64,000 nucleotides of DNA, taken from assembly GCA_020631905.1 (NCBI GenBank), contig JACKGQ010000001.1, positions 101,854-165,853 on the forward strand, given 5' to 3'. The position numbers and the translations under genes are program-made. This stretch comes from Candidatus Nomurabacteria bacterium. Lineage in GTDB: Bacteria; Patescibacteriota; Saccharimonadia; Saccharimonadales; VXPC01. This document shows positions 45,665-60,084 of the stretch, piece after piece. Position 1 is the stretch's first letter; the number at the start of each line of letters is the position of its first letter. Below the pieces are notes generated by a model. It saw only the letters and a list, made by a program, of their open reading frames with translations. It was not told the DNA's origin and made no database searches.

Positions 45665-46258
45665 ATGAAATCTCAATTAATCTTAGTTATTGTCGCCGGA
45701 CTCGGCGCGTTAGTGGCGGCTTACAGCCTGGGCTGGCAAGGGGCAGCAGATAAGCGGTTGACTAATTCTGGCGTCGACACCAGTGAGACAGTCGTCAGTT
45801 CGGCCAACTGTCTATCAGAAGATTGCTTGAAAGTAGCCGATCTAGAATACCCGGCCGGCGAATTGCCGAAAGATGTTATCTCTGCCCTCAACGTGGCGAT
45901 TGATGACGAGTACAAAGCACGAGCCACCTACTCAGCCGTTATAAGTAAGCTTGGCTCGATACGCCCATTCTCGATGATTATTCGAGCCGAGGAACAACAC
46001 ATCTCATCACTTAAAGCCATCTACGACAAATACGGCTTAGAAATTCCAGATGACCCATATACAGACGTTCAGGTTGCAGCCACAAAGGCAGCAAATTGCT
46101 CAGTTGGTGTCCAGGCAGAAATCGATAACGCCGCCCTTTATCGTGATTCTCTGTTACCAAGGGTCTCCGCCTATCCAGATATTACAAGTGTTTTTACTAG
46201 TCTAATGAACGCCAGTCAGAACAACCATTTGCCAGCTTTCGAACGCTGTGCCAGCTAG
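45665..46258 (+). CDS. Ferritin-like (DUF2202-type) secreted/anchored protein
   Basis: LNVAIDDEYKARATYSAVISKLGSIRPFSMIIRAEEQHISSLKAIYDKYGL has paired E..(Y/H) helices. AAGGAG lies upstream. Confidence 0.6.
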   Translation: MKSQLILVIVAGLGALVAAYSLGWQGAADKRLTNSGVDTSETVVSSANCLSEDCLKVADLEYPAGELPKDVISALNVAIDDEYKARATYSAVISKLGSIRPFSMIIRAEEQHISSLKAIYDKYGLEIPDDPYTDVQVAATKAANCSVGVQAEIDNAALYRDSLLPRVSAYPDITSVFTSLMNASQNNHLPAFERCAS

Positions 46259-46644
46259 GTTCGACGACTACACCGACCGCAAATACCCGAAACTAGAACT
46301 CGACCAGATATCTGGCAGTTTCTAGCTGTACAGTTTTCCAAAGTGTTCATGACCAATGGTAGAACATCTATATCCTGGAGTTCATCACATTCTGTACATA
46401 AAAAATGATCATGAGGCTTAATGTTGGCGTCGTACCTCATGGCACCAGAAGTATCAGCTGGTGCAACCGAAATCTCACCACGACCAGCCAGCCTGGCGGT
46501 AGCTCGATGAATGGTCGTATCACTAACATACGGATAATGTTTGCGAACTAAAACGGCGATCTCAGCGTTGCTAGCATGGCCCAGGCTTTTTACGGCTTGG
46601 CGGATTAAAGTACAGTACTTACTTTCTCGTGCTTGAACTTTCAT
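46255..46644 (-). CDS. Fur-family transcriptional regulator
   Basis: Winged-helix N-terminus, then HDHFLCTECDELQDI...CGRCS (HxH plus CxxC pairs). It is divergent from the glutaredoxin-like gene. Confidence 0.7.
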   Translation of the reverse strand: MKVQARESKYCTLIRQAVKSLGHASNAEIAVLVRKHYPYVSDTTIHRATARLAGRGEISVAPADTSGAMRYDANIKPHDHFLCTECDELQDIDVLPLVMNTLENCTARNCQISGRVLVSGICGRCSRRT

Positions 46645-46663
46645 TGCTTTACATTATACTATA

Positions 46664-46688
46664 ATTGTAAATGTAAATTATTTACAAT
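46664..46688. promoter_or_regulatory. Perfect 9-bp inverted repeat ATTGTAAAT-N7-ATTTACAAT, candidate operator
   Basis: It lies between the divergent Fur-family and glutaredoxin-like genes and overlaps the end of TATAAT at 46660-46665. Confidence 0.5.
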
Positions 46689-46701
46689 TAGAAAGGTACA
46701 T

Positions 46702-46959
46702 ATGAAGAAAGTAACTGTATACAGCACAACCACCTGTCCATATTGCGTGATGGTCAAGCGTTGGCTAGCTGAAAGAGGTATAGAATTTGAAGATGTCTTG
46801 GTCGATAAAGACCCAGCTATGGCTAAGAAAATGGTCGAGCTAAGTGGCCAGATGGGCGTCCCCTTTACAACAATTGAAGATGATGAGTCTGAACAGATAC
46901 AAGGTATTTTGGGTTTCAACATCCCTTCACTTACACAAGCATTAGGCTTGTTGTATTAG
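46702..46959 (+). CDS. Glutaredoxin-like protein (NrdH/Grx family)
   Basis: MKKVTVYSTTTCPYCVMVKRWLAERGIEFEDVLVD...GVPFTTI has the CPYC active site and thioredoxin-fold pattern. Confidence 0.8.
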   Translation: MKKVTVYSTTTCPYCVMVKRWLAERGIEFEDVLVDKDPAMAKKMVELSGQMGVPFTTIEDDESEQIQGILGFNIPSLTQALGLLY

Positions 46960-48296: not shown

Positions 48297-48333
48297 AGAA
48301 ATTTAATTTAAATTTAATTTAAATTAAATTTCT
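48297..48333. repeat. AT-only hairpin: 16-bp perfect stem, 5-nt loop
   Basis: AGAAATTTAATTTAAA-tttaa-TTTAAATTAAATTTCT lies between convergent genes. Confidence 0.7.
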
Positions 48334-48588: not shown

Positions 48589-49194
48589 CTAGGTAAGCAA
48601 TTTATCTCGATAATGTTCAATGATGTAACGGACTGGAAAAGTCAGATCTTTTCGGATAGCTTCATCAAGAGTAAGCCAGGTGGGCATATGACCCTCCTCC
48701 TCTTCTAGCATCTTTAAATCTATATTCTGATTTAGCACAATAAGATACGCATGCCATCTGTGCGCATCACAACCCCGACGACAAGAATCTCCAATAATAT
48801 CTTCGCTCATAATTTTGGTTGCTGATTCGACTATAAGGCCAACCTCTTCTTGAGCTTCTCGACGCATTGCTGTTAGAGGATCCTCGCCTTCGTCAACATG
48901 TCCAGCAGGAATGGTTATGGCAAATGGAAACTTAACACGCTCAAAGAATAAGAACTTATACTCATGGTTACGGATAAAAACACCGGCACTCTCATGCCAG
49001 TATTCGCCCCCTTCGCCGACCCACCACTTTATTTTGGGATCAATAACAATCAAGCGATCGTGACGTTTATTACAAGACGCACAAAAGTAGTATATCTTAC
49101 CTTCATCGACGACTTTGTGCACCGATTCGGCATAGCACTGTATGCAGTATTGATGAAGCTTCCCATCGTTTTGCCAATCGAAATCAAGCTTCAT
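48589..49194 (-). CDS. NUDIX hydrolase with N-terminal zinc ribbon
   Basis: CIQCYAES...FCASCNKRH (CxxC...CxxC) and the NUDIX box GHVDEGEDPLTAMRREAQEEVGL. Confidence 0.8.
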   Translation of the reverse strand: MKLDFDWQNDGKLHQYCIQCYAESVHKVVDEGKIYYFCASCNKRHDRLIVIDPKIKWWVGEGGEYWHESAGVFIRNHEYKFLFFERVKFPFAITIPAGHVDEGEDPLTAMRREAQEEVGLIVESATKIMSEDIIGDSCRRGCDAHRWHAYLIVLNQNIDLKMLEEEEGHMPTWLTLDEAIRKDLTFPVRYIIEHYRDKLLT

Positions 49195-49885: not shown

Positions 49886-50070
49886 AACATAAAAAGAGGC
49901 ATTTCAACTCCGAAAATCTTAGTTATAACCTTGGCTCCCCTTACAGGTCACGGAATCTATACAGGGGTCGCAGGACACAAAACGAGACAAATGAGACACG
50001 AAACGCACTTTTTTAGTTGTCAATTAGCCGTGCATTAATAATCTCTTGATTAGCATTGTATAATAGACGT

Positions 50071-50322
50071 ATGAAGAGTATGTGTCAAAGCTGTGCCCAG
50101 CCCCTAAAAACGAATAATAAAGGAACTGAAAAAGACGGTTCGTTGAGTCCTGAGTACTGTAATCTGTGCTATCAAAACGGTGTATTCAAAGATCCTGACT
50201 TAACGCTAGACCAGATGAAAGCTATCTATGTCGAGGCCATGAAGAAGATGCATTTCCCGCGTTTTATTGGTAAAACGATGGCCAATTCGCAACTCCCCAA
50301 GCTGAAGCGCTGGAAAGTTTAG
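50071..50322 (+). CDS. Zinc-ribbon domain protein
   Basis: MKSMCQSCAQPL...SPEYCNLCYQNG (CxxC...CxxC). ATG 50071 lies 6 nt after TATAAT 50059-50064. The track start is a TTG inside the -10 box. Confidence 0.6.
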   Translation: MKSMCQSCAQPLKTNNKGTEKDGSLSPEYCNLCYQNGVFKDPDLTLDQMKAIYVEAMKKMHFPRFIGKTMANSQLPKLKRWKV

Positions 50323-50952: not shown

Positions 50953-51198
50953 ACTTCATGGATTTTATCCATACCAAATTCGCCTTAAAAGGCGGCAAGA
51001 TCGGCTTAGTTTAGAGCCGTAAACTAACTAGAATTTGTTCTCTTTTTTGTTTAATTTTGATGGCGACAGGTCACGAACCGAAATAACAGGGGTAGAAGCC
51101 GTTTGGTACGGTCTCGGAACTCAGTCTTTTAAATGTCCGCTGAGCCACCATAATGCTACACGGTCTAGTTCATTTTAGAGGGCATTTAACAGATGTGA

Positions 51199-51234
51199 AA
51201 CAAACAAAAAAGACCGGTCATAGGAACACGGTCT
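51199..51234 (-). terminator. Rho-independent terminator of the minus-strand metal operon
   Basis: AGACCG-12 nt-CGGTCT followed by TTTTTTGTTTG on the minus strand. Confidence 0.65.
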
Positions 51235-51253
51235 TTATGTGTTGATTTGCATC

Positions 51254-51280
51254 TGGCTCCGAGGGGTGGATTCGAACCAA
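51254..51280 (-). pseudogene. tRNA 3'-end fragment (T-loop, T-stem 3' strand, acceptor 3' strand, CCA)
   Basis: The minus strand reads TTGGTTCGAATCCACCCCTCGGAGCCA. No matching 5' half is present. 23 of the first 26 nt match the tRNA-Asn 3' end at 59507-59532, in the same orientation. Confidence 0.6.
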
Positions 51281-51357
51281 ACGAATATACCACCTTATTT
51301 TTGGCTCGCTTTACCTTAGCTTGCATCTGTTATTTTTCAAACAATTACTTGTAATGG

Positions 51358-51546
51358 CTACTCTTCGTGATCATGTTCGTCGGCATGAGTCTCGGAATCA
51401 CTTTCGTCGCTATGGCTGTCGTTTTCACGGTCATGGTTATGCCCAACTTCTGTAGTTGATTCGATTACTTCACCGTCATGAGCATCGTCACTATGGTCTT
51501 TGCATTTAGATGACACGAATCTGATCGCCTTCTTCAAGCTCTGCAA
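51358..51546 (-). CDS. His/Asp/Glu-rich small ORF (possible metal-binding peptide); start uncertain
   Basis: ...KCKDHSDDAHDGEVIESTTEVGHNHDRENDSHSDESDSETHADEHDHEE. The track start is a TTG with no RBS, and its 5' end overlaps ORF 51506-51622 in another frame. Confidence 0.35.
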   Translation of the reverse strand: MQSLKKAIRFVSSKCKDHSDDAHDGEVIESTTEVGHNHDRENDSHSDESDSETHADEHDHEE

Positions 51547-51622
51547 TGTAGAAATACGGGCTGTATAGACGGGCTACTTTTTCACCGTTGATATACAAGT
51601 GAGCGTGTCCGTGACCAAGCAT
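51506..51622 (-). CDS. Small HxHxH ORF (38 aa)
   Basis: Below the track cutoff. ATG 51622 is preceded by GGAG with a 5-nt spacer. The product is MLGHGHAHLYINGEKVARLYSPYFYIAELEEGDQIRVI. Confidence 0.35.
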   Translation of the reverse strand: MLGHGHAHLYINGEKVARLYSPYFYIAELEEGDQIRVI

Positions 51623-51745
51623 ATTTTCTCCATTCATATCTTAAGACGAAAAAGTAAAAAATTCGCCGTTTCAAGCTCTAGATTCCATCCAGATTTCACA
51701 CCTTTATCAAGACGATCGACATAGCTAGGGCGCAAGAAGATAAGT

Positions 51746-53179
51746 CTAGTGTTTTTTTATACAAACTCCAGCTTGCTCACGAGGTAGGTCATGGTATGAC
51801 CATTCAATAGTTCCGCCTTCAACTGAGTATGCTTCGACATCCTGGTCACGTAACTGCTGTGCAAAAGCAAGAGATGAAACTCCTCGCTGACATACAACAA
51901 ATATTTTTTGATTATACGTGTTAGTGTCGATGTCTGTTTTTGTATCAGTCCATATTGCATATGGAACGTGGAAATGCTCAAACATTTCTCGCGATCGAAT
52001 ATCAAGAATGACAACATTCTTACTTTTCTTGATTTCTTCAATATTGAGATTCTTGATCTGCTCTCTTTCTACTCCGTATGCTTGAGTAATAAAATCATCG
52101 ATAGATAACTCAAGGTCTGAATCAAGATTATCTGGCTGCTCATCCTCAATAAGAAGTAATTCCTCGTTTTCAATTTCAGGAAATTCTTCTTTACCAAGAT
52201 AATAGAAATATTCATCAAAGTATGGAAATGGCGTGTCGCATGCAATGACTACGGCATTAATCACACCTTCTTTGTTGGTTAAGTTATTAAGTGTCCCATC
52301 TTCTTTTTTCTGTTGCAGTATCTTGAAAAGCCCCTGAAGATTAAATCCTGTACTTGGTCCAACCAATAATCCATGACGACAGAGTTTTAGACTTTGAGAA
52401 TATGATTCAACTGTTCCAACTTCAATAAGTTCATCAGAGACATCTTGCCAATCAAAAGCTATTTCATCCAAGAGATTCCGTGTCCGAGGTCCTGGAACAG
52501 GATTGTTCTTTGAACGTACCACACCGATAGTTTGAATTTTTGGATTCTGTTCTTTCAGAAACGAAGCTGTCCCCACCATGGTACCGGTGGTCCCAAGCCC
52601 AGCACAAAACATTTGAATATCACCCTTGGTCTGTTTCCAAATTTGTTGACCAGTGATTTCTGCATGAATATTTGGATTATCAATATTGTCGTACTGACCA
52701 GGATTAAAGAGTTCATCTTGTTCTTCTGCCCATTTCTTTGCCTTAAAAATACCACTCGTTGGATCACTCGGATCGGGGCAAATTGGTTCTTCGTTAATAA
52801 TTGGCTTCACACCAAAAAATTGAAGGAGTTTTAGTTTTCCTTTACTAATTTGATGAGATGCTACTGCTTTTGTGGCCGGAACTCCAAAGAGCTTACCTAA
52901 GATAGCCAAAGAATACACTGTGTTCCCAGAAGAGTTTTCAACCAAAGTTTCAACTCCTTTCAATTTTTGAGATTTATATGCTTGTTCAAGCATATTCCAT
53001 GCAGGAAGTGATTTTACGTTTGCTAGGGGTGTCGTCGACATCATTTTCATATGGATCCGTACACCGTCATCATAGAACGGATTTAATTCAGGTGGTAATT
53101 CAACCAACGGGGTTACTGCATTATGAGGATTAAGATAGTCATATAATCCTTTCGCTCCTGAATAGACATTACTCTCCAT
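51746..53179 (-). CDS. PLP-dependent cysteine-synthase-fold (PALP) enzyme fused to a C-terminal rhodanese domain
   Basis: PALP motifs include the Lys in PLANVKSLPAW, ENSSGNTVYSLA and CAGLGTTGTMVG. The C-terminal VVILDIRSREMFEHFHVPYAIW...VVCQRGVSSLAFA carries the rhodanese active-site loop CQRGVSS. Confidence 0.7.
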   Translation of the reverse strand: MESNVYSGAKGLYDYLNPHNAVTPLVELPPELNPFYDDGVRIHMKMMSTTPLANVKSLPAWNMLEQAYKSQKLKGVETLVENSSGNTVYSLAILGKLFGVPATKAVASHQISKGKLKLLQFFGVKPIINEEPICPDPSDPTSGIFKAKKWAEEQDELFNPGQYDNIDNPNIHAEITGQQIWKQTKGDIQMFCAGLGTTGTMVGTASFLKEQNPKIQTIGVVRSKNNPVPGPRTRNLLDEIAFDWQDVSDELIEVGTVESYSQSLKLCRHGLLVGPSTGFNLQGLFKILQQKKEDGTLNNLTNKEGVINAVVIACDTPFPYFDEYFYYLGKEEFPEIENEELLLIEDEQPDNLDSDLELSIDDFITQAYGVEREQIKNLNIEEIKKSKNVVILDIRSREMFEHFHVPYAIWTDTKTDIDTNTYNQKIFVVCQRGVSSLAFAQQLRDQDVEAYSVEGGTIEWSYHDLPREQAGVCIKKH

Positions 53180-54152
53180 ATTTCTCTGCTACAAATGTCT
53201 CAAAATCAAACCCGTCTTGAATTTGATTTGTTAAATCACCAACTCGAGCGACAACGTAATCTTGAGCGATATATTTTTTGTGTAGTTCAACCAGGTGAGT
53301 AAGGCGATCATTATATGAACGTCGATTTTCTTTTAGTCTCTCATTTATCTTTTTTAAAGTATTCTGTGATGTTTGATCAAGAGCTGTTGCATTAAGATCT
53401 TCTCGATCCTTGTCTACATTTCGAATATGACCACTTAGCATTATTGATCCAAGATACTTCTCTTGAGGAACTGTTTCTAGTATAAATTTTTCATCATCAG
53501 TATCTTCAATTTTGTTCCCAACCACGTATAGTTGATCAAAGATACCTGCATGTTTTGCAAGTTCTGTATACTGTTTATACACCGCAACGCTTCGCTTAGT
53601 TGGCTCAATGCTTAATACCAAGATATCAAATTGAGCATGGAGTGAACCTGCAAAAGCATCAACTCCAGCGACCATGTCAGCAATGATATACGCGTTTGAA
53701 TCAATACTGTGAGCAAGAATATTTTCAAGAATCGCAAGACTATTGTGATAACAGCTTTTTCCGATACCGTCAACATCGTAGGCACCGACGATACTTAAGT
53801 ACATACTGTCTTTCTTCCTTGAATATTTTTTAAAAAGCACATTACCGCTATCACTCAAATCAAAATAACCAGAGTCTTCTGTTGGCGGTGTTGTTTTCTT
53901 AATATGTGCAACGGTCTCAATACGAGGGTTTTCCGACTTGATATATTCCTTGATTTCTTTTTGAATATTTCCTGATGAAAGGTGTGGAAGAATTGATAGG
54001 TCTTCAAAATCCAACAAGTCACCAACATGGATATTCATATCAGCATCAAAGAGTGTAATATTTTTTTGCTCTGTCCGCGCAACGTAATGCGCAAAGAGTG
54101 AGGTCAGTGTTGTTTTTCCTGCACCTCCTTTTCCTACAAATGCTATTCTCAT
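53169..54152 (-). CDS. MinD/ParA-superfamily P-loop ATPase, CooC-like (metal-centre maturation type)
   Basis: MRIAFVGKGGAGKTTL has the deviant Walker A. DMVAGVDAF and a GKSCYH motif are also present. It overlaps the downstream PLP gene by 11 nt. GGAAAGGAAAT lies upstream. Confidence 0.65.
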   Translation of the reverse strand: MRIAFVGKGGAGKTTLTSLFAHYVARTEQKNITLFDADMNIHVGDLLDFEDLSILPHLSSGNIQKEIKEYIKSENPRIETVAHIKKTTPPTEDSGYFDLSDSGNVLFKKYSRKKDSMYLSIVGAYDVDGIGKSCYHNSLAILENILAHSIDSNAYIIADMVAGVDAFAGSLHAQFDILVLSIEPTKRSVAVYKQYTELAKHAGIFDQLYVVGNKIEDTDDEKFILETVPQEKYLGSIMLSGHIRNVDKDREDLNATALDQTSQNTLKKINERLKENRRSYNDRLTHLVELHKKYIAQDYVVARVGDLTNQIQDGFDFETFVAEKYGE

Positions 54153-54222
54153 ATTTCCTTTCCGTTTTCAAAACGTAAGTATATATATTCTTGAGAAGAT
54201 GATACATATACTGTAAAATTAC

Positions 54223-54237
54223 TGCAAATAATTTGCA
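54223..54237. promoter_or_regulatory. 7-1-7 palindrome TGCAAAT-A-ATTTGCA, Fur/Zur-box-like operator
   Basis: It is perfect and AT-rich, lies 11 nt downstream of TATACT (54207-54212), and sits between the divergent Fur-family gene and the ATPase/PLP operon. Confidence 0.55.
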
Positions 54238-54251
54238 ATAAGGATGATTTA

Positions 54252-54719
54252 ATGCAAGCTAATCAATTACTACAAGCAAGCTTTGAGCAAGATATGCGGT
54301 CATCAGGGCTGCGGATTACTCATGTGAGGCAAAGACTTTTTGAAGTGCTCGCAAAAACTAATAAACCGCTATCAGTAAAAGAGCTTGTAGAAAAAACAGA
54401 TGAGGCTCATTTCGTTAGTATCTATCGGTCAATCGACGCTCTACATAAGGCAGGCATAATTAAACAGGTACCAAGAGGTTTCAAGAACCTGTACGAACTG
54501 AGCGACACTTATAGGCCACATCATCATCATGCTACCTGTGAAATATGTGGTAAAAGCACTTCAACTCATGATCAAAAACTTGAGAAACTAATGTCGGACC
54601 TTTCTGTCAAAGCGGGGTTTGAGCCCACCAAGCACACATTTGAAATATTCGGGGTGTGCAATCTCTGTCGTATTTCTAGGGTAGCCATACCAAACCAAAA
54701 CCCGAGAAATCAGCAATAG
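54252..54719 (+). CDS. Fur-family metalloregulator (Zur-like by context)
   Basis: RITHVRQRLFEVLAKTNKPLSVKELVEK (winged helix), then HHHHATCEICGKS...CNLC (His cluster plus two CxxC). Confidence 0.7.
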   Translation: MQANQLLQASFEQDMRSSGLRITHVRQRLFEVLAKTNKPLSVKELVEKTDEAHFVSIYRSIDALHKAGIIKQVPRGFKNLYELSDTYRPHHHHATCEICGKSTSTHDQKLEKLMSDLSVKAGFEPTKHTFEIFGVCNLCRISRVAIPNQNPRNQQ

Positions 54720-56106
54720 ATTTTTTACTCTCAGAGTCATATATGATCGTGTGTGTCTGTTCGCATTGTGCGTTAGGGCTTACTTGATCAAACTGACAAT
54801 AATCAGCGTTTAACTGTGCTGACAATAATATTCCATCGTAGCTAGGTGCCAGTTCTCTCAAGGTTTCGCTAGGATAATCGCTCGTAGTCAATTCAATTTT
54901 TGGTTCTTGATCATCCCAGCCTTGCAATGAATAAACGAAGCTTTGTGCCTCTCCCAGTGAATACGAAGTCGAAGCAATATAAATTTTCTTATTTCCAGAC
55001 ACTACCGACTGCACGTAGCCAGCAGTATCTAGCTCGAATGGCGAGACATCTCCCGATGACACATCGTAGAGTGAGAAGTTACTTTGATCTCTAAACAATA
55101 TTCGACTACCGTTCTCATTAAATCCGAATGATGATGTGTGCGATCCAATCAGCACAGGATCGTAGTCGTTGAATGGACTAACTGCATAAAATGTTTGCAT
55201 TTGGTCTTGAATAAGTGCCACCTGACCATCGTTATCCATTTGGATTGAATATGCACGTATGTAATCTCCCTCAGAGTTTGTAAGTGAGCGTGCTTCGCCA
55301 GATTCCAAATTTATCGCCTCAACTCGAGCAGAAAATCTCTCATAGTATTCGGGACTGACGGAATTGTAGTCAGGTGTGACGGTAAACAAGGCAATCTTAC
55401 CTCTTGGACTTAATGTCAGATAATTTAGCCTGCCGCCAAGTAAAAGCTGTTCTTCACGTACTTCTTTGGTTTGCAGATTGATAGTATATAGAGAATCCCT
55501 CTCTTCACCCTTTGTCGCAATTACCACGAAGTCACAATTAGCAGCAAACATAGTTATTTCAGGATTAGAAAATACTATTTCAGGATCATCACCTAGTCTG
55601 GCAATTTTTATATAATCATCTGCATCCTGCGATAAAAACGATTCATCGCTATAGTCAATCCCGTAATTTCTTTCAAGGTATGCATAGGATGGCTGAGCGG
55701 TCTGTATGGTTTTTTGATATATTCCTCTCATTGGTCTGTCAGTCTGATCAAATATGTCAGGTCCCACCTCGATAGTGTACTCAGTATCGTGTTTAAGATT
55801 CTCGAGTAACGTTACTGTAATATTCTGTGCGGTTGTTTGCGAGGTAAACGAAACACTTGGGATAAAGCGTATTTGTGCGGTGTAGTCACCTTCACGCAAC
55901 GGTCTGTCGAAACGTATTGTCATGGTTGAATTTTGAGTAAGTGACTGGAGGCTCGGATCGCTATCGAAATCAACTATCCGTACTCGAGGACCATGGTTAT
56001 AAAGCAAAAAAGATAAACCAACGATTAGTAGAGCTAGTAGAGATGAAATAAGAACGAGCTTACGATAGTACACACTAGTTGGCATAAGGATTCCTTGGTT
56101 GCTCAA
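54676..56106 (-). CDS. Membrane-anchored Ig-like + beta-propeller-like protein
   Basis: TM anchor, an Ig-like N-domain (...MTIRFDRPL...EYTIEVGPDIFD...) and a repetitive beta-strand region. It is the last gene of the permease operon, and its 3' end overlaps the Fur-family gene by 44 nt. Confidence 0.5.
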   Translation of the reverse strand: MSNQGILMPTSVYYRKLVLISSLLALLIVGLSFLLYNHGPRVRIVDFDSDPSLQSLTQNSTMTIRFDRPLREGDYTAQIRFIPSVSFTSQTTAQNITVTLLENLKHDTEYTIEVGPDIFDQTDRPMRGIYQKTIQTAQPSYAYLERNYGIDYSDESFLSQDADDYIKIARLGDDPEIVFSNPEITMFAANCDFVVIATKGEERDSLYTINLQTKEVREEQLLLGGRLNYLTLSPRGKIALFTVTPDYNSVSPEYYERFSARVEAINLESGEARSLTNSEGDYIRAYSIQMDNDGQVALIQDQMQTFYAVSPFNDYDPVLIGSHTSSFGFNENGSRILFRDQSNFSLYDVSSGDVSPFELDTAGYVQSVVSGNKKIYIASTSYSLGEAQSFVYSLQGWDDQEPKIELTTSDYPSETLRELAPSYDGILLSAQLNADYCQFDQVSPNAQCEQTHTIIYDSESKKSIADFSGFGLVWLP

Positions 56107-56812
56107 TTTGCATAGTACTAGTCGGGACGAGTACTAGTATTTCACCTTCTGTAGTTTGTTTCTTTTGAAAAATGCCTTCAACTTCAAGCCATTCGTCTTT
56201 ATCATATTCTGATCGCCAGTTATTAAGCTGCACAGGTATGCCGACTGGCTGAGCGTCTACAGCACAGCACGTTAATACAAACCGAGCGAGCCAGATAGTG
56301 TCATTGCCAAGATTCGCATCATACACAAAACCACTAATCTTAGCTGGTTTATTGGCGTAATATGTTGGGTCTTGGTTGCTTGAGAGAAGTCGTGACCAAT
56401 CTGTAAGTTTCAGTCCTCTAGATGAGCCAGCAAAAAGTGTGTTCAGTGGTTTTGATTCTGAGGTCGATACTAACGATCCTGCGTCGGTAGAACGTTGCGA
56501 GACAGTCGCAGAGGTTAGTGTTCTAGCTGGCAGAAGTACAGCAGCGATAATCACAAGCCCGAGCGGGAGAAAAGTAAGCTTACCGGACTTATGGGAATGG
56601 CTTTCAAGTGAATAGTAGCTATTTAGTACAAGTAGCAACAGTGCTATAGCGGCCATTATTATCGTAAATGCGACATATCGTGGATGAATGTAGAGAGTAA
56701 GCTGCTTCGTGACCCCCAAATAAGCAATATAAGTTGCTGAGATTAATAGTATGACGGTTTGTAGTTGGGATAGCTTAAAACGCATACGACACCACCAGTC
56801 CTGCAAGAGCAC
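56075..56812 (-). CDS. TIGR03943/DUF1980-family two-TM protein (partner of DUF318-type permease)
   Basis: Two N-terminal TM helices and the C-terminal ARFVLTCCAVDAQPVGIPV (CCxxDA motif). MRFKLSQ (56785) may be the true start. Confidence 0.6.
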   Translation of the reverse strand: MLLQDWWCRMRFKLSQLQTVILLISATYIAYLGVTKQLTLYIHPRYVAFTIIMAAIALLLLVLNSYYSLESHSHKSGKLTFLPLGLVIIAAVLLPARTLTSATVSQRSTDAGSLVSTSESKPLNTLFAGSSRGLKLTDWSRLLSSNQDPTYYANKPAKISGFVYDANLGNDTIWLARFVLTCCAVDAQPVGIPVQLNNWRSEYDKDEWLEVEGIFQKKQTTEGEILVLVPTSTMQIEQPRNPYAN

Positions 56813-57833
56813 TCATTAACAATGAAAGTATAGTTATGGTGATTAACAGTTCGTTTTTGAATGTGGTTTTTAGTAAAGCCAACATCTTTATGTCTATCAT
56901 TGGTCCAAATACCAAGAAGCTGACGATTGAACCCGCAGTAAACGTGTTAGCAAATGACAATGCAAAGAACGCATCGACATTGGCACATATGGATACTACG
57001 AACGCCAATAGAAGCATAGCTAGGATAGATAGAATTACATTGCTACCAATACTAACTAAAATGTCCCGTGGAACAAATGATTGAACGACACCCGCAACAA
57101 TAGCACCAAAAGCGAGCATCTTTATCATCGCAAAAGCTTCGTGAGTGAAGTTACTGCTTAGTTTATCTGCTCGATGACGTGTTGTTCTCTCCTGCTTGGT
57201 AGGGGCATCACAAAGTGCGACAAAGTCCATAGTTAGGAAATCTTGCTCTCGTTTCTTTAGTGAAAGAATATACCCAATGATGTTTGCAATGACAAAGGTG
57301 GCTGCCACTCGTGAAACCACAATTGATTGATCATAGCTAAAAGCTGCCCAAGTTGCCCATATCGTAACTGGGTTAATTACAGGAGCAGCTAACAGAAACG
57401 TGACGGCTTCCGATGGCTTCAACCCTTGAATCATAAGGCTCCGCGCGAGAGGTACATTGCCGCATTCACAAACTGGGAATAAGAAACCCATTAGAGATAA
57501 GATTGCTCGTCTGAAGACACCTTTCTTCGGCAATAACTTCTCAAAAGTATGTGCTGGAACGTAGGTATTCACTACAGCTGCCAAGAGCGAGCCAAGCACA
57601 AGAAATGGAAAAGCTTCTACAAAGATACTTAACGAAAGAGTTGCAAAATCTTGCGCTCTGTTAGGAAGTAGTATTTTGTCAAACAAGTAATCAGAAGAAC
57701 TCAAAACGGCTAAGGTTAGAAGAACCACTACCATTGGTAGCACCAGTTTTCTCCCCTGAGTAATCCGCTTGGTTAGACGATTCGAAACCATAACAACATT
57801 GTAGCGAACTTGCTTAACAACGACCATGAACAA
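56775..57833 (-). CDS. DUF318/ArsP-type permease
   Basis: It is polytopic, with FPVCECGNVPLARSL (CxC motif) and an internally repeated topology. The start may be MVSNRL (57791). Confidence 0.6.
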   Translation of the reverse strand: MFMVVVKQVRYNVVMVSNRLTKRITQGRKLVLPMVVVLLTLAVLSSSDYLFDKILLPNRAQDFATLSLSIFVEAFPFLVLGSLLAAVVNTYVPAHTFEKLLPKKGVFRRAILSLMGFLFPVCECGNVPLARSLMIQGLKPSEAVTFLLAAPVINPVTIWATWAAFSYDQSIVVSRVAATFVIANIIGYILSLKKREQDFLTMDFVALCDAPTKQERTTRHRADKLSSNFTHEAFAMIKMLAFGAIVAGVVQSFVPRDILVSIGSNVILSILAMLLLAFVVSICANVDAFFALSFANTFTAGSIVSFLVFGPMIDIKMLALLKTTFKNELLITITILSLLMSALAGLVVSYAF

Positions 57834-57927
57834 AGTCTTAATAGGTCATGGAGCCAGGTTGGGTTTTGGGGTCCTTGGTTGCCTATTGGAAAACATGTTG
57901 CGGTTAGAACTTTTGTAAGGAGTAAAC

Positions 57928-58143
57928 ATGCAAAAACCGCCATTTCTGACGGTTCCAACATTTGTAGCTTGTAATCACTACGGCACATATTTCTCTGAGA
58001 CTCAGGAGTCAAAGGAGGAACCGGTCATGGAACTCGGTCACTCTATTTCACTGCTGGGTCTGGCTCCGGGGACTGGATTACTGGGGTATATTTTGACTAA
58101 CTTTCGCGTATGCAAGCATCCACGGTTTAGTCAAAATATCTGA
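57928..58143 (+). CDS. Questionable small ORF (71 aa) spanning the tRNA-Asn 3'-end copy
   Basis: It has a good RBS (TAAGGAG, 6 nt, ATG) but no motif, and it contains the 19-nt repeat at 58061-58079. Confidence 0.25.
   Translation: MQKPPFLTVPTFVACNHYGTYFSETQESKEEPVMELGHSISLLGLAPGTGLLGYILTNFRVCKHPRFSQNI
58061..58079 (-). repeat. 19-nt exact copy of the tRNA-Asn 3' end (att-like)
   Basis: TGGCTCCGGGGACTGGATT is identical to 59507-59525, in the same orientation, 1446 bp away. Confidence 0.85.
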
Positions 58144-58200
58144 ACCAGCGACTTGCATCAGCTAAAGCTGCTGCGTCGCTGAACCGAACCAACTCCCTGA

Positions 58201-59506: not shown

Positions 59507-59581
59507 TGGCTCCGGGGACTGGATTCGAACCAGCGACCTAGTGGTTAACAGCCACCCGCTCTACCGCTGAGCTACCCCGGA
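59507..59581 (-). tRNA. tRNA-Asn (GTT)
   Basis: 75-nt cloverleaf. Acceptor TCCGGGG/CCCCGGA, D arm GCTC-AGCGGTA-GAGC, anticodon loop CTGTTAA, T arm GCTGG-TTCGAAT-CCAGT, discriminator G, encoded CCA. Confidence 0.9.
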
Positions 59582-59823
59582 ATAAATTGTTTAACGTACT
59601 CTCGACCCTTTGCAGATTTTAGAGATCTCTCTCGTTGAATCGCTTCAGAACGAGTGGTAAATGATTCCTTATAAATCAACTCCCATTCGCCCTCAAACTT
59701 AGAAGTAAAGCTTTTTGTTTTGTGTTTATTATTATGCGCTAGCAACCTAGCCTTAATGTTCTGAGTTTGACCTATATATATCTTACTCGCGATCTTATTA
59801 AAGATTACATAAACATAAAACAC
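59572..59823 (-). CDS. Small GIY-YIG (URI-domain, COG2827-like) nuclease
   Basis: FYVYVIFNKIASKIYIGQTQNIKARLLAHNN...ELIYKESFTTRSEAIQRERSLKS has the GIY/YIG, R and E motifs. The GTG start lies 6 nt after TGTATAAT. The last codons and the TAG stop lie inside tRNA-Asn nt 1-10. Confidence 0.8.
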   Translation of the reverse strand: MFYVYVIFNKIASKIYIGQTQNIKARLLAHNNKHKTKSFTSKFEGEWELIYKESFTTRSEAIQRERSLKSAKGREYVKQFIPG

Positions 59824-59860: not shown

Positions 59861-59874
59861 TGAGCTACCCCGGA
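59861..59874 (-). repeat. 14-nt exact copy of the tRNA-Asn 5' end
   Basis: TGAGCTACCCCGGA is identical to 59568-59581 (tRNA nt 1-14 on the minus strand) and lies 293 bp upstream of the tRNA. It is followed on the minus strand by the 16-bp palindrome TCCGCCAGCTGGCGGA (59845-59860). Confidence 0.85.
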
Positions 59875-60084
59875 TTAGCGCTTCGCTTACGAGACAAAAC
59901 TACGTTTTTTCTCATCGCGCGGGACGCGAAATAAATTCGACGTTCCGGCTGCTCTTTTTCTTTATCAAGAACAGACAAGCTTTGGAATGTACGTGAGCTG
60001 ATCACTCAATTACAGGGGTCAAGTATACTGTTTTCTATCAGCGGTGTCAAAGGACTATAATAAAAGTGTAGTAAAGGAGATCTT

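Follow-up and report, generated by a model that had tools for sequence, protein, structure and literature searches.

What does an ATPase that resembles metal-insertion ATPases do beside a pyridoxal phosphate (PLP) enzyme fused to a rhodanese-like domain, and why does a gene for a Fur-family repressor stand next to both? The question is raised by a locus within a 64,000-nt stretch of contig JACKGQ010000001.1 from a Candidatus Nomurabacteria bacterium. In what follows, the window is the whole of that stretch, and L-numbers denote related loci that were fetched for comparison. A preliminary description of the window had reported a Fur-family gene, an ATPase gene with a GKSCYH motif, and a PLP-rhodanese gene that overlaps the ATPase gene by 11 nt, and all three were located where it had placed them (Table 1). 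We are confident that they form a conserved module in which a Fur-family regulator controls an ATPase and an enzyme that resembles aspergillomarasmine A (AMA) synthase.

A scan of species-representative genomes yielded 80 loci, and further loci were added through exact protein look-up. The PLP-rhodanese protein has more than 900 relatives. A homologue of the ATPase (38 to 81% identity) lies immediately upstream on the same strand in 51 of the 57 loci that encode the two-domain PLP protein, so that the pairing first noticed in the window is conserved in other genomes. In the window the start of the PLP-rhodanese open reading frame (ORF) overlaps the end of the ATPase ORF at positions 53169 to 53179. 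A single protein of 829 residues, P0030, fuses the ATPase with the PLP-rhodanese enzyme; this one case, on a 4.3-kb contig, is weak evidence because the two genes normally overlap and a 1-nt assembly error there could produce it. A Fur-family gene adjoins the ATPase-PLP pair in about 38 loci, where it may diverge from the module, precede it directly on the same strand, or follow it. For example, in the closest relative locus, L086, the module proteins are 81% and 75% identical to those of the window and the gene order differs, with fur on the same strand as the operon. The carriers are nearly all metagenome-assembled genomes of the candidate phyla radiation (CPR)/Patescibacteria. We found no description of the combination of ATPase, PLP-rhodanese enzyme, and Fur-family regulator in the literature, and the statement in the preliminary description that it fits no characterized operon still holds.

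The taxonomic labels of these carrier genomes look unreliable. Many carriers (L016, L020, L030, L033, L063, and others) are labelled 'uncultured Gammaproteobacteria' in third-party annotation (TPA) assemblies, and their gene content matches that of the CPR loci; one carrier with this label has a 1.0-Mb chromosome. The ATPase and PLP enzyme of the window carry different phylum-level labels at NCBI (Nomurabacteria vs Saccharibacteria): the former is identical to a protein from a metagenome-assembled genome labelled Candidatus Nomurabacteria, the latter to a partial protein labelled Candidatus Saccharibacteria, and both labels place the window in a CPR/Patescibacteria genome.

When the PLP-rhodanese protein was searched with phmmer against all PDB sequences, the best match was 8h4q/8h4h, a sequence labelled 'Rhodanese domain-containing protein' (E=2.6e-89 over residues 4-469, which takes in both domains). 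The next matches, cysteine synthases and CBS, followed at about 1e-25, with no more than 94 bits compared with 304 bits for 8h4q. Foldseek searches with an AlphaFold2 model of the enzyme (predicted local distance difference test [pLDDT] 90.2) gave the same order, with 8H4H/8H4Q at E about 1e-43 and CBS, CapA1, and CysM at about 1e-21. The two entries are titled 'The apo structure of Aspergillomarasmine A synthetase' and 'Aspergillomarasmine A biosynthese complex with OPS'; neither a structural paper on AMA synthase nor a paper citing 8H4H/8H4Q was found, and the entries are identified here by their titles. A search with the 8h4q sequence identified it as a protein of Pleosporales that is conserved across filamentous ascomycetes. 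The enzyme of the window aligned with a fungal orthologue in BLASTP at 36% identity (E=1e-101), and its PLP domain is 44% identical to that of AMA synthase.

The preliminary description had read the PLP enzyme as a sulfur-mobilizing enzyme with the cysteine-synthase fold. Its scores on the relevant NCBIfam models were far below the cut-offs for membership: 140 bits vs 344 for TIGR01136 (cysKM), 123 and 120 bits vs 394 and 351 for TIGR01138 and TIGR01139, and 97 bits vs 350 for the SbnA model TIGR03945. There was no SbnB-like neighbor in 54 loci. With scores so far under the cut-offs and AMA synthase much closer, the possibility that the protein is a housekeeping CysK with a decorative rhodanese domain was rejected, and the CysK-based sulfur reading of the enzyme was abandoned with it.

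The residues that would be needed for PLP chemistry are present. K56, the Schiff-base lysine in NVKSLP, and the GLGTTGT phosphate loop are invariant in the family. K45, N54, K56, S83, S84, G85, T87, and K115 are invariant in 51 CPR and 24 proteobacterial enzymes and conserved in AMA synthase, and the same is true of D139, N159, Q162, H172, R232, R268, Y320, and Y324. AMA synthase thus shares the lysine, substrate-loop residues, and several basic residues with the bacterial enzyme, a pattern that is compatible with a shared O-phosphoserine site. In the rhodanese loop, CQRGVSS, Cys430 is invariant, fungal sequences included. Two other cysteines set the CPR enzymes apart. Cys134, in an invariant EPICPDP loop, is found in all of the CPR enzymes and is specific to them, and the C-terminal Cys473 is nearly invariant among them. 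The CPR enzymes also have SSGNT where AMA synthase has SSGST.

AMA synthase needs no other enzyme to make AMA, for which it adds O-phospho-L-serine to L-aspartate in successive steps; it is a C-N bond-forming enzyme that requires no sulfur, and the metals bound by its product are Zn, Ni, and Co, whereas Mg, Ca, Mn, and Fe are not bound (PMC8319579). Its architecture, seen in the apo form (8H4H) and with O-phosphoserine (8H4Q), is that of the enzyme in the window, a PLP domain followed by a C-terminal rhodanese-like domain with its Cys. Because AMA synthase has this domain and needs no sulfur, the rhodanese domain is no evidence for thiol or thiocarboxylate chemistry. A Zn/Ni/Co-selective chelator would fit a metal-starvation regulon. 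However, the fungal enzyme acts alone, with no known ATPase partner and no Fur-type control. By sequence and by predicted fold the enzyme of the window belongs with AMA synthase, and homology suggests a similar reaction.

A second enzyme of this kind is Fda4, a PLP enzyme described with a rhodanese-like domain, which joins O-phosphoserine to L-alanine in vitro (PMC12751119). Fda4 belongs to the L-2,3-diaminopropionate (L-Dap) module of the fusadapamide cluster of Fusarium poae and is similar by description, in that O-phosphoserine is condensed with the amine of an amino acid. It pairs with the flavin adenine dinucleotide (FAD) oxidase Fda3 to release free L-Dap for a nonribosomal peptide synthetase, whereas neither an Fda3-like FAD oxidase nor a nonribosomal peptide synthetase was found near the bacterial module. 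SbnA, of the staphyloferrin B pathway, also adds an amino-acid amine to aminoacrylate derived from O-phosphoserine. The production of ethylenediamine disuccinate (EDDS) and of staphylopine is reportedly under Zur or Fur control. Aminopolycarboxylate metallophores are a recognized class of gene cluster (antiSMASH 7). Unlike the known bacterial PLP and opine pathways to metallophores (SbnA/SbnB, Zur-regulated [S,S]-EDDS, and staphylopine cnt), the module has no dedicated ABC importer linked to it, and no SbnB-type dehydrogenase, nicotianamine-synthase-like enzyme, or opine dehydrogenase was found near it.

Rhodobacteraceae and other proteobacteria have a sister clade of the PLP enzyme, about 48% identical and without the rhodanese domain (L051-L083; for example, L061 6986-12806, L064 2754-8430, and L067 2851-8385). 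Its members have no CooC-like neighbor. They are cotranscribed with ArsR and, in more than 14 loci, are flanked by ArsD, ArsA, an MIP aquaglyceroporin, and a class I/II aminotransferase. We know of no role for a PLP beta-substitution enzyme embedded in arsenic operons.

The preliminary description had also drawn attention to a perfect 7-1-7 palindrome downstream of a TATACT sequence, between fur and the minus-strand operon, and both are present. Judged by palindrome count alone the site is unremarkable, since the window has 13 perfect 7-1-7 palindromes compared with 4.5 +/- 2.1 expected; its significance lies in its conservation across loci rather than in that count. Four of the 13 are supplied by overlapping AT-only palindromes (AATTTAATTTAAATT...) in an intergenic run at 48300-48330, upstream of a NUDIX gene.

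The consensus of the operator family, [TC]GCAA-N5-TTGC[AG], occurs at 45 sites in 658 kb of CPR loci. Approximately 38 of these sites, from some 32-34 of the 54 loci, lie no more than roughly 200 nt ahead of a module gene (Fur, ATPase, or PLP). When three later loci were included (692 kb in all) and sites were counted automatically by a stricter rule, 30 boxes fell in the 23.8 kb of module-upstream zones and 20 in the remaining 668 kb. This corresponds to 1.26 boxes per kb upstream of the module vs 0.03 per kb elsewhere, an enrichment of about 40-fold, with a box in 27 of the 54 eligible loci. The identical 15-mer is upstream of fur in L086 despite the changed gene order. Loci without an adjacent fur (L001, L025, L063, and L084) retain the box before the ATPase gene, and distant loci keep it whether fur is divergent, upstream, or absent. 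From these sequence comparisons we conclude that the box is the probable operator of a dedicated Fur-family repressor. The earlier suggestion that the unit is under the control of a metal regulator is thereby strengthened, both by the conserved and enriched operator and by the frequent adjacency of fur.

In a consensus scan for promoters, TTGAGA-17-TAAAAT was favored as the plus-strand promoter of fur over the TATACT at 54207-54212. The operator begins 4 nt past the -10 of this predicted fur promoter, and the -35 of the predicted promoter of the minus-strand ATPase/PLP operon falls within it. Thus, the box would follow the -10 of one promoter and overlap the -35 of the other. A second palindrome of the 6-1-6 type, at 54163-54175, had been assigned to the leader of the operon. 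It is present but is not conserved, and it is at the level expected by chance (27 palindromes of this type in the window compared with 17.8 +/- 4.3 expected). It was rejected both as an operator and as a leader structure; RNA cannot fold into a 6-bp stem closed by a 1-nt loop.

The regulator has the structural Cys4 site of the Fur/Zur family, made of two CxxC motifs. Its best solved relative is FurB/Zur of Mycobacterium tuberculosis (2o03, E=7.5e-13), marginally ahead of Fur and PerR, although the regulatory-site Cys of the M. tuberculosis protein is not conserved. Its NCBIfam scores are highest for Fur models, all far below the cut-offs. The Zur consensus box of Streptomyces coelicolor is TGAAAATGATTTTCA (PMC2823685), from which the module box, TGCAAATnATTTGCA, differs at one position in each half-site. 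As in Zur regulons, a Fur-family repressor is combined with a 7-1-7 box that overlaps promoters, which are predicted ones here. Genes for COG0523/ZigA-type GTPases, as in Zur/ZigA systems, share the operon or the box with the module in two related loci. In L006 a COG0523 gene is directly upstream of the ATPase gene, and its product scores 592.5 bits on the NCBIfam ZigA model (E=3e-178, cut-off 600); in L010 the box separates a COG0523 GTPase gene from a gene for an ArsP_1 permease with a DUF1980 partner. In contrast to Zur/ZigA systems, the invariant chaperone-like partner is of the CooC type and not COG0523. No ZigA-type COG0523 gene was found in the window, and neither znuABC genes nor ribosomal-protein paralogues were seen in the related loci. 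On sequence grounds the regulator belongs to the Fur family, its box resembles that of Zur, some genes of its putative regulon in sister genomes are of a kind found in Zur regulons, and zinc is the metal that the regulator most likely senses.

The window encodes a second Fur-family paralogue at 46255-46644 on the minus strand, PerR-like by NCBIfam (E=3.5e-14) and divergent from a glutaredoxin-like gene at 46633-46959. It has a perfect 7-1-7 box of its own, TGTAAATTATTTACA, at 46672-46686, which differs from the module box at position 3 of each half-site.

Among solved structures, the ATPase is most closely related to CooC1 of Carboxydothermus (3KJE), the nickel-insertion ATPase of carbon monoxide dehydrogenase (CODH). 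The phmmer match to 3kje extends over residues 1-238 (E=2.6e-11). An AlphaFold2 model (pLDDT 91.8) also placed CooC1 first in Foldseek (E=1e-12, TM-score 0.73 on the target), followed by NifH, ATPase-type HypB, and MinD. The two proteins match in the deviant Walker A motif, the switch motifs, and the position of the metal motif. Invariant in 66 homologues of the ATPase are K8, G-K13-T, D36, D38, C134, Y135, H136, DMVAG, EPT, and NK. Cys134-Tyr-His136 aligns with the Cys-x-Cys metal motif of CooC1; the loop that carries it is the least confident part of the monomer model. The Cys-x-Cys motif reportedly forms a metal site across the CooC1 dimer. The ATPase of the window differs from CooC1 in having Cys-x-His in place of Cys-x-Cys, a 60-residue insertion, and about 85 more residues at the C terminus; these large insertions and the extension are family specific and include invariant residues. 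No CODH gene (cooS/acs) neighbors the ATPase gene in 57 loci, the constant neighbor being the PLP enzyme gene. Searches of Pfam and NCBIfam found no cobW GTPase domain, and the protein is not a member of COG0523. The ATPase is probably CooC-like in fold and mode of action, but it lacks the C-x-C motif and the CODH context of CooC itself. Two loci, L038 and L042, lack the ATPase yet keep the box, the PLP enzyme, and a methyltransferase, which fits an accessory role for the ATPase.

Table 1. Positions in the window of the module and of the features around it.
Feature	Position	Strand	Basis and remarks
Fur-family repressor, Zur-like, 155 residues	54252..54719	+	PF01475 E=8.6e-17; HHHH and two CxxC (C96xxC99, C136xxC139)
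15-bp 7-1-7 operator (putative) TGCAAATAATTTGCA (TGCAAAT-A-ATTTGCA)	54223..54237	no strand	Exact palindrome; common to both divergent promoters (predicted)
Sigma-70-like fur promoter TTGAGA-17-TAAAAT	54191..54219	+	Consensus scan; putative function
Sigma-70-like ATPase/PLP operon promoter TTTGCA-18-TATCAT	54199..54228	-	Consensus scan; putative function
CooC-type P-loop ATPase, 327 residues	53169..54152	-	Deviant Walker A GKGGAGKT; GKSCYH; 85-residue C-terminal helical extension
PLP (fold type II) and rhodanese-like fusion, 477 residues, AMA synthase homologue	51746..53179	-	PALP (PF00291) E=1e-36; rhodanese (PF00581) E=2e-7
Decayed DUF4399-like gene with His/Asp/Glu-rich tail	51358..51735	-	At least 2 frameshifts, one TAA, N terminus missing
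Operon next to fur: ArsP_1 permease 56775-57833, DUF1980/TIGR03943 subunit 56075-56812, Big_5 protein 54676-56106	54676..57833	-	Pfam, NCBIfam
Intact tRNA-Asn gene, presumed integration target	59507..59581	-	ARAGORN, Rfam
tRNA-Asn 3'-end copy (19/19 nt), right edge of 6.8-kb segment	58061..58079	-	Direct repeat
Displaced tRNA-Asn 3'-end copy (23/26 nt), left edge of inserted region	51254..51279	-	Direct-repeat families D1 and D2
Terminator-like hairpin AAAGACCG-12 nt-CGGTCTTT, then T-run	51200..51238	-	Read from sequence; putative function

The genes around the module in related loci bear on what it might make. In about 5 loci the operon includes S-adenosylmethionine (SAM) methyltransferase genes, placed either within it or at its end. 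The methyltransferase gene lies between the ATPase and PLP genes in L006 (4391-7618) and L045 (4960-8404) and after the PLP gene in L038 and L042 (507-3116), where the order is box, fur, PLP, methyltransferase. Such insertions fit the tailoring of a small molecule. No sulfur-pathway gene was recurrent in 54 neighborhoods. Transport candidates with metal-binding tails recur near the module. His-tailed membrane proteins are encoded nearby, YibE/F in 12 loci and also cl45, and in L031, L034, and L047 the box lies between fur and a divergent gene for a YibE/F membrane protein with a His-rich tail. The methyltransferases, the loci without the ATPase, the absence of recurrent sulfur genes, and the tailed transport candidates all support a small-molecule pathway. 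In the window, the ArsP_1-DUF1980-Big_5 operon is a possible transport partner of the module, though its membership in the regulon of this genome is not supported by a box. The same trio adjoins the module in L035 and L041, and an ArsP_1-DUF1980 pair is nearby in L010. The box precedes ArsP_1 in L010 and L041, where in the latter it stands between ArsP_1 and the ATPase gene.

These observations can be joined into one mechanism, a Zur-like, metal-starvation-induced synthase for an aminopolycarboxylate metallophore with a Cys-x-His partner of the CooC type, and we put the chances that all of it is right slightly short of even. A Fur-family repressor, most likely zinc sensing, would bind the 15-bp box over both divergent promoters and, when metal is sufficient, shut off its own gene and the ATPase/PLP operon. 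Upon derepression, the PLP enzyme would form aminoacrylate from O-phosphoserine and add to it the alpha-amine of an amino acid, perhaps an Asp-like one. This would yield a chelator akin to toxin A, aspergillomarasmine, or EDDS, namely an N-(2-amino-2-carboxyethyl) aminopolycarboxylate. The cotranslated ATPase would dimerize on ATP, its invariant Cys-x-His building a Cys2His2 site at the dimer interface. Its fold and motif point to a metal-handling partner, which might pass metal between the chelator and proteins or gate the synthase according to metal status. Of the options raised in the preliminary description, metallophore synthesis is thus the one now best supported, whereas resemblance to CysK and the rhodanese domain, on which sulfur mobilization had been based, do not support it.

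Several observations weigh against this mechanism. The supply of O-phosphoserine in these reduced genomes is not accounted for, and neither are Cys430, Cys134, and Cys473 of the PLP enzyme, which would fit a role in sulfur or metal chemistry. The PALP domain is closer to relatives encoded in arsenic operons (48% identity) than to AMA synthase (44%). The pairing of ATPase and PLP enzyme is unexplained by the chemistry, because AMA synthase needs no ATPase, and the P0030 fusion could be an artifact of a 1-nt error on one short contig. The sequence of the regulator does not assign it to Zur, Fur, or PerR. The exact box is missing from about 40% of the loci (for example, L016, L087, and L088), and there is no box within 2 mismatches upstream of the ArsP_1 operon of the window (57833). 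No exporter or importer is consistently linked to the module in the related loci.

The cysteines left unexplained by a chelator synthase are the main reason why sulfur-based readings are kept as live rivals. In one of these, which we consider distinctly unlikely, sulfur would be mobilized for a metal-sulfur center. The PLP domain would be a cysteine desulfhydrase or a persulfide-forming beta-replacement enzyme, Cys430 and Cys473 would carry persulfide, and an Fe-S or Ni/Zn-S site would be assembled on, or inserted by, the CooC/NifH/Mrp-like ATPase dimer; one version makes the module a zinc-independent backup for SufS-SufU. The rhodanese loop is of the GlpE sulfurtransferase type with an invariant Cys, and the conservation of Cys134 and Cys473, the standing of NifH and ATPase-type HypB as fold neighbors of the ATPase after CooC1, and the tight coupling of the two genes through the 11-nt overlap would also fit. 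However, AMA synthase has the same rhodanese-like domain with its Cys and catalyzes a reaction that needs no sulfur (PMC8319579). Furthermore, no gene for a sulfur carrier, desulfurase, scaffold, or thioredoxin is recurrent nearby, and the methyltransferase insertions and ATPase-less variants better suit a metabolite pathway. We give little credence to a specialized cysteine or thiol synthase for metal or metalloid stress, which would use O-phosphoserine to make cysteine or an S-substituted cysteine as a buffer or chelator of soft metals. The 48%-identical homologues cotranscribed with ArsR in arsenic operons, at more than 14 loci, and the CysK-like SSGNT substrate loop speak for such an enzyme, but the score of the PLP enzyme is far below the CysK, CysM, and CBS cut-offs, its closest characterized relatives make C-N bonds, and the context, with a Fur-family repressor and a ZigA-type GTPase, is that of metal starvation and not of metal excess.

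It is also possible, though unlikely, that the same architecture and chelator chemistry serve nickel, cobalt, or iron, with a Nur- or Fur-like regulator and a CooC-like nickel chaperone. The CooC and HypB relatives of the ATPase are nickel chaperones, AMA binds Ni and Co too, and the NCBIfam scores of the regulator, all far below the cut-offs, are highest for Fur models. Arguing for zinc instead are the ZigA-type COG0523 protein in the same operon or regulon of related loci, a box that is nearest to the actinobacterial Zur box, and a best solved relative of the regulator, if marginally so, that is the M. tuberculosis Zur. Cys2His2 is a typical zinc site, and AMA does not bind Fe. Finally, the ATPase might itself be an enzyme that phosphorylates serine to feed O-phosphoserine to the synthase, much as SbnI, an unrelated kinase, phosphorylates serine for SbnA, or that activates a carboxylate. 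CPR genomes are biosynthetically poor, the closest characterized relatives of the PLP enzyme use O-phosphoserine, and the ATPase has family-specific insertions and a C-terminal extension with invariant residues. Nevertheless, this role is very improbable: a deviant Walker A motif with its signature lysine and a Cys-x-His aligned with the metal motif of CooC mark the dimer-switch metal ATPases, and we know of no small-molecule kinase in this subfamily.

The module appears to be horizontally mobile. In the window it lies within a segment (51280-58060) that contains a pseudogene, the PLP enzyme, ATPase, and fur genes, and the ArsP_1-DUF1980-Big_5 operon, and that is bounded by copies of the 3' end of a tRNA-Asn gene. 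A second segment of 1.4 kb between the tRNA-Asn repeats holds a Peptidase_S51 gene and a 119-residue ORF. The 5' part of the tRNA (59568-59584) is repeated at 59861-59877. No integrase gene is left. Tandem insertion into a tRNA gene usually leaves an arrangement of repeats such as this one. A tRNA gene at 51040-51340 was considered and rejected: none was detected by ARAGORN or Rfam, even with relaxed settings, the repeat at 51254-51279 is a copy of the tRNA-Asn 3' end, and a piece at 51062 gave no convincing alignment with the tRNA. The terminator-like hairpin comes after the displaced tRNA fragment, at the end of the minus-strand unit; the scan tool did not call it because its loop exceeds 8 nt. 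In other genomes, genes for large serine recombinases lie beside the module (L015, L017, L026, and L043). In L002 (1-7735), L003, and L004 the fur-ATPase-PLP operon, with a Fur protein of 102-117 residues, follows genes for FtsK/SpoIIIE, Replic_Relax, and SSB and precedes a type IIG restriction-modification gene, which suggests that the module there is part of an integrative or conjugative element.

Beyond the left edge of the inserted region, and close to it, are genes for a stand-alone Zn_ribbon_2 protein (50056-50322, 88 residues) and for a NUDIX hydrolase with an N-terminal Cys4 zinc-ribbon-like segment (48589-49194). Toward the right edge, an ORF-poor stretch of about 360 nt (57840-58200, minus strand) between the Peptidase_S51 terminator and the start of ArsP_1, which includes a tRNA-Asn repeat, folds far better than its shuffles (z=-5.6; plus strand z=-3.7). 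No Rfam family was found in the structured region at 57.8-58.3 kb. The stretch may be where an island joins, act as a long structured leader, or encode an unannotated RNA.

The pseudogene in the segment accounts for two small His-rich ORFs that the preliminary description had placed in the operon. The ORFs exist as such but are pieces of one decayed DUF4399-like gene. They have no match in Pfam or NCBIfam. When the mini-ORF of 43 residues was searched against 1.84 billion representative proteins, 390 relatives were found, in which the segment is part of a domain of roughly 100 residues with the motif GHAHLYINGEKVARLY, in proteins of 140-1000 residues; some of the relatives have weak DUF4399 matches. 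The GHAHLYINGEKVARLY domain is repeated 1-8 times per protein, and the family is secreted or anchored. In a tblastn search, a member of 153 residues (P0460) aligned to 51658-51512 with 60% identity (E=8e-14), through an in-frame TAA. The strand 'GWNLELE' of the pseudogene is in a second frame (ORF 51634-51735) and the His/Asp/Glu-rich tail is in a third (51358-51546), and the N-terminal membrane anchor of the family is missing. A DUF4399-like gene near the module is absent from every related locus. A function as His-rich peptides was therefore rejected for the mini-ORFs, which have no family match, are not conserved in close relatives, and show homology only through a stop codon and frameshifts. 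The His-rich N-terminal segments of intact members of the GHAHLYINGEKVARLY family suggest extracytoplasmic metal binding.

AMA strips zinc from metallo-beta-lactamases of the NDM type and is of clinical interest for that reason. To our knowledge the only known route to it is fungal. A widespread bacterial family with the architecture of AMA synthase under a metal-starvation switch would provide new biocatalysts and possibly new natural chelators. The ATPase, with its Cys-x-His motif and its firm link to a PLP enzyme, represents a branch of the metal-insertion ATPases without an assigned role. A bolder proposal, a speculation with a small chance of being right, is that the ATPase and the AMA-synthase-like enzyme are one ATP-gated machine, which couples the synthesis of an aminopolycarboxylate zincophore to direct metal hand-off or serves as a metal-sensing switch of the synthase, and which mobile elements have carried among ultra-small CPR symbionts, organisms whose metals have to come from the host. 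If this is true, the machine would define a zinc metallochaperone class distinct from COG0523 and would be the first AMA-type metallophore pathway in bacteria, and as a corollary the sister clade in arsenic operons would use the same aminoacrylate chemistry with a metalloid-related nucleophile.

We know of no defined regulon in CPR bacteria, and the module would add one that is defined by sequence, with its operator, regulator, and targets. If the module does make a metallophore under the control of a Zur-like repressor, it would show how genome-reduced CPR episymbionts compete for zinc, nickel, or cobalt.

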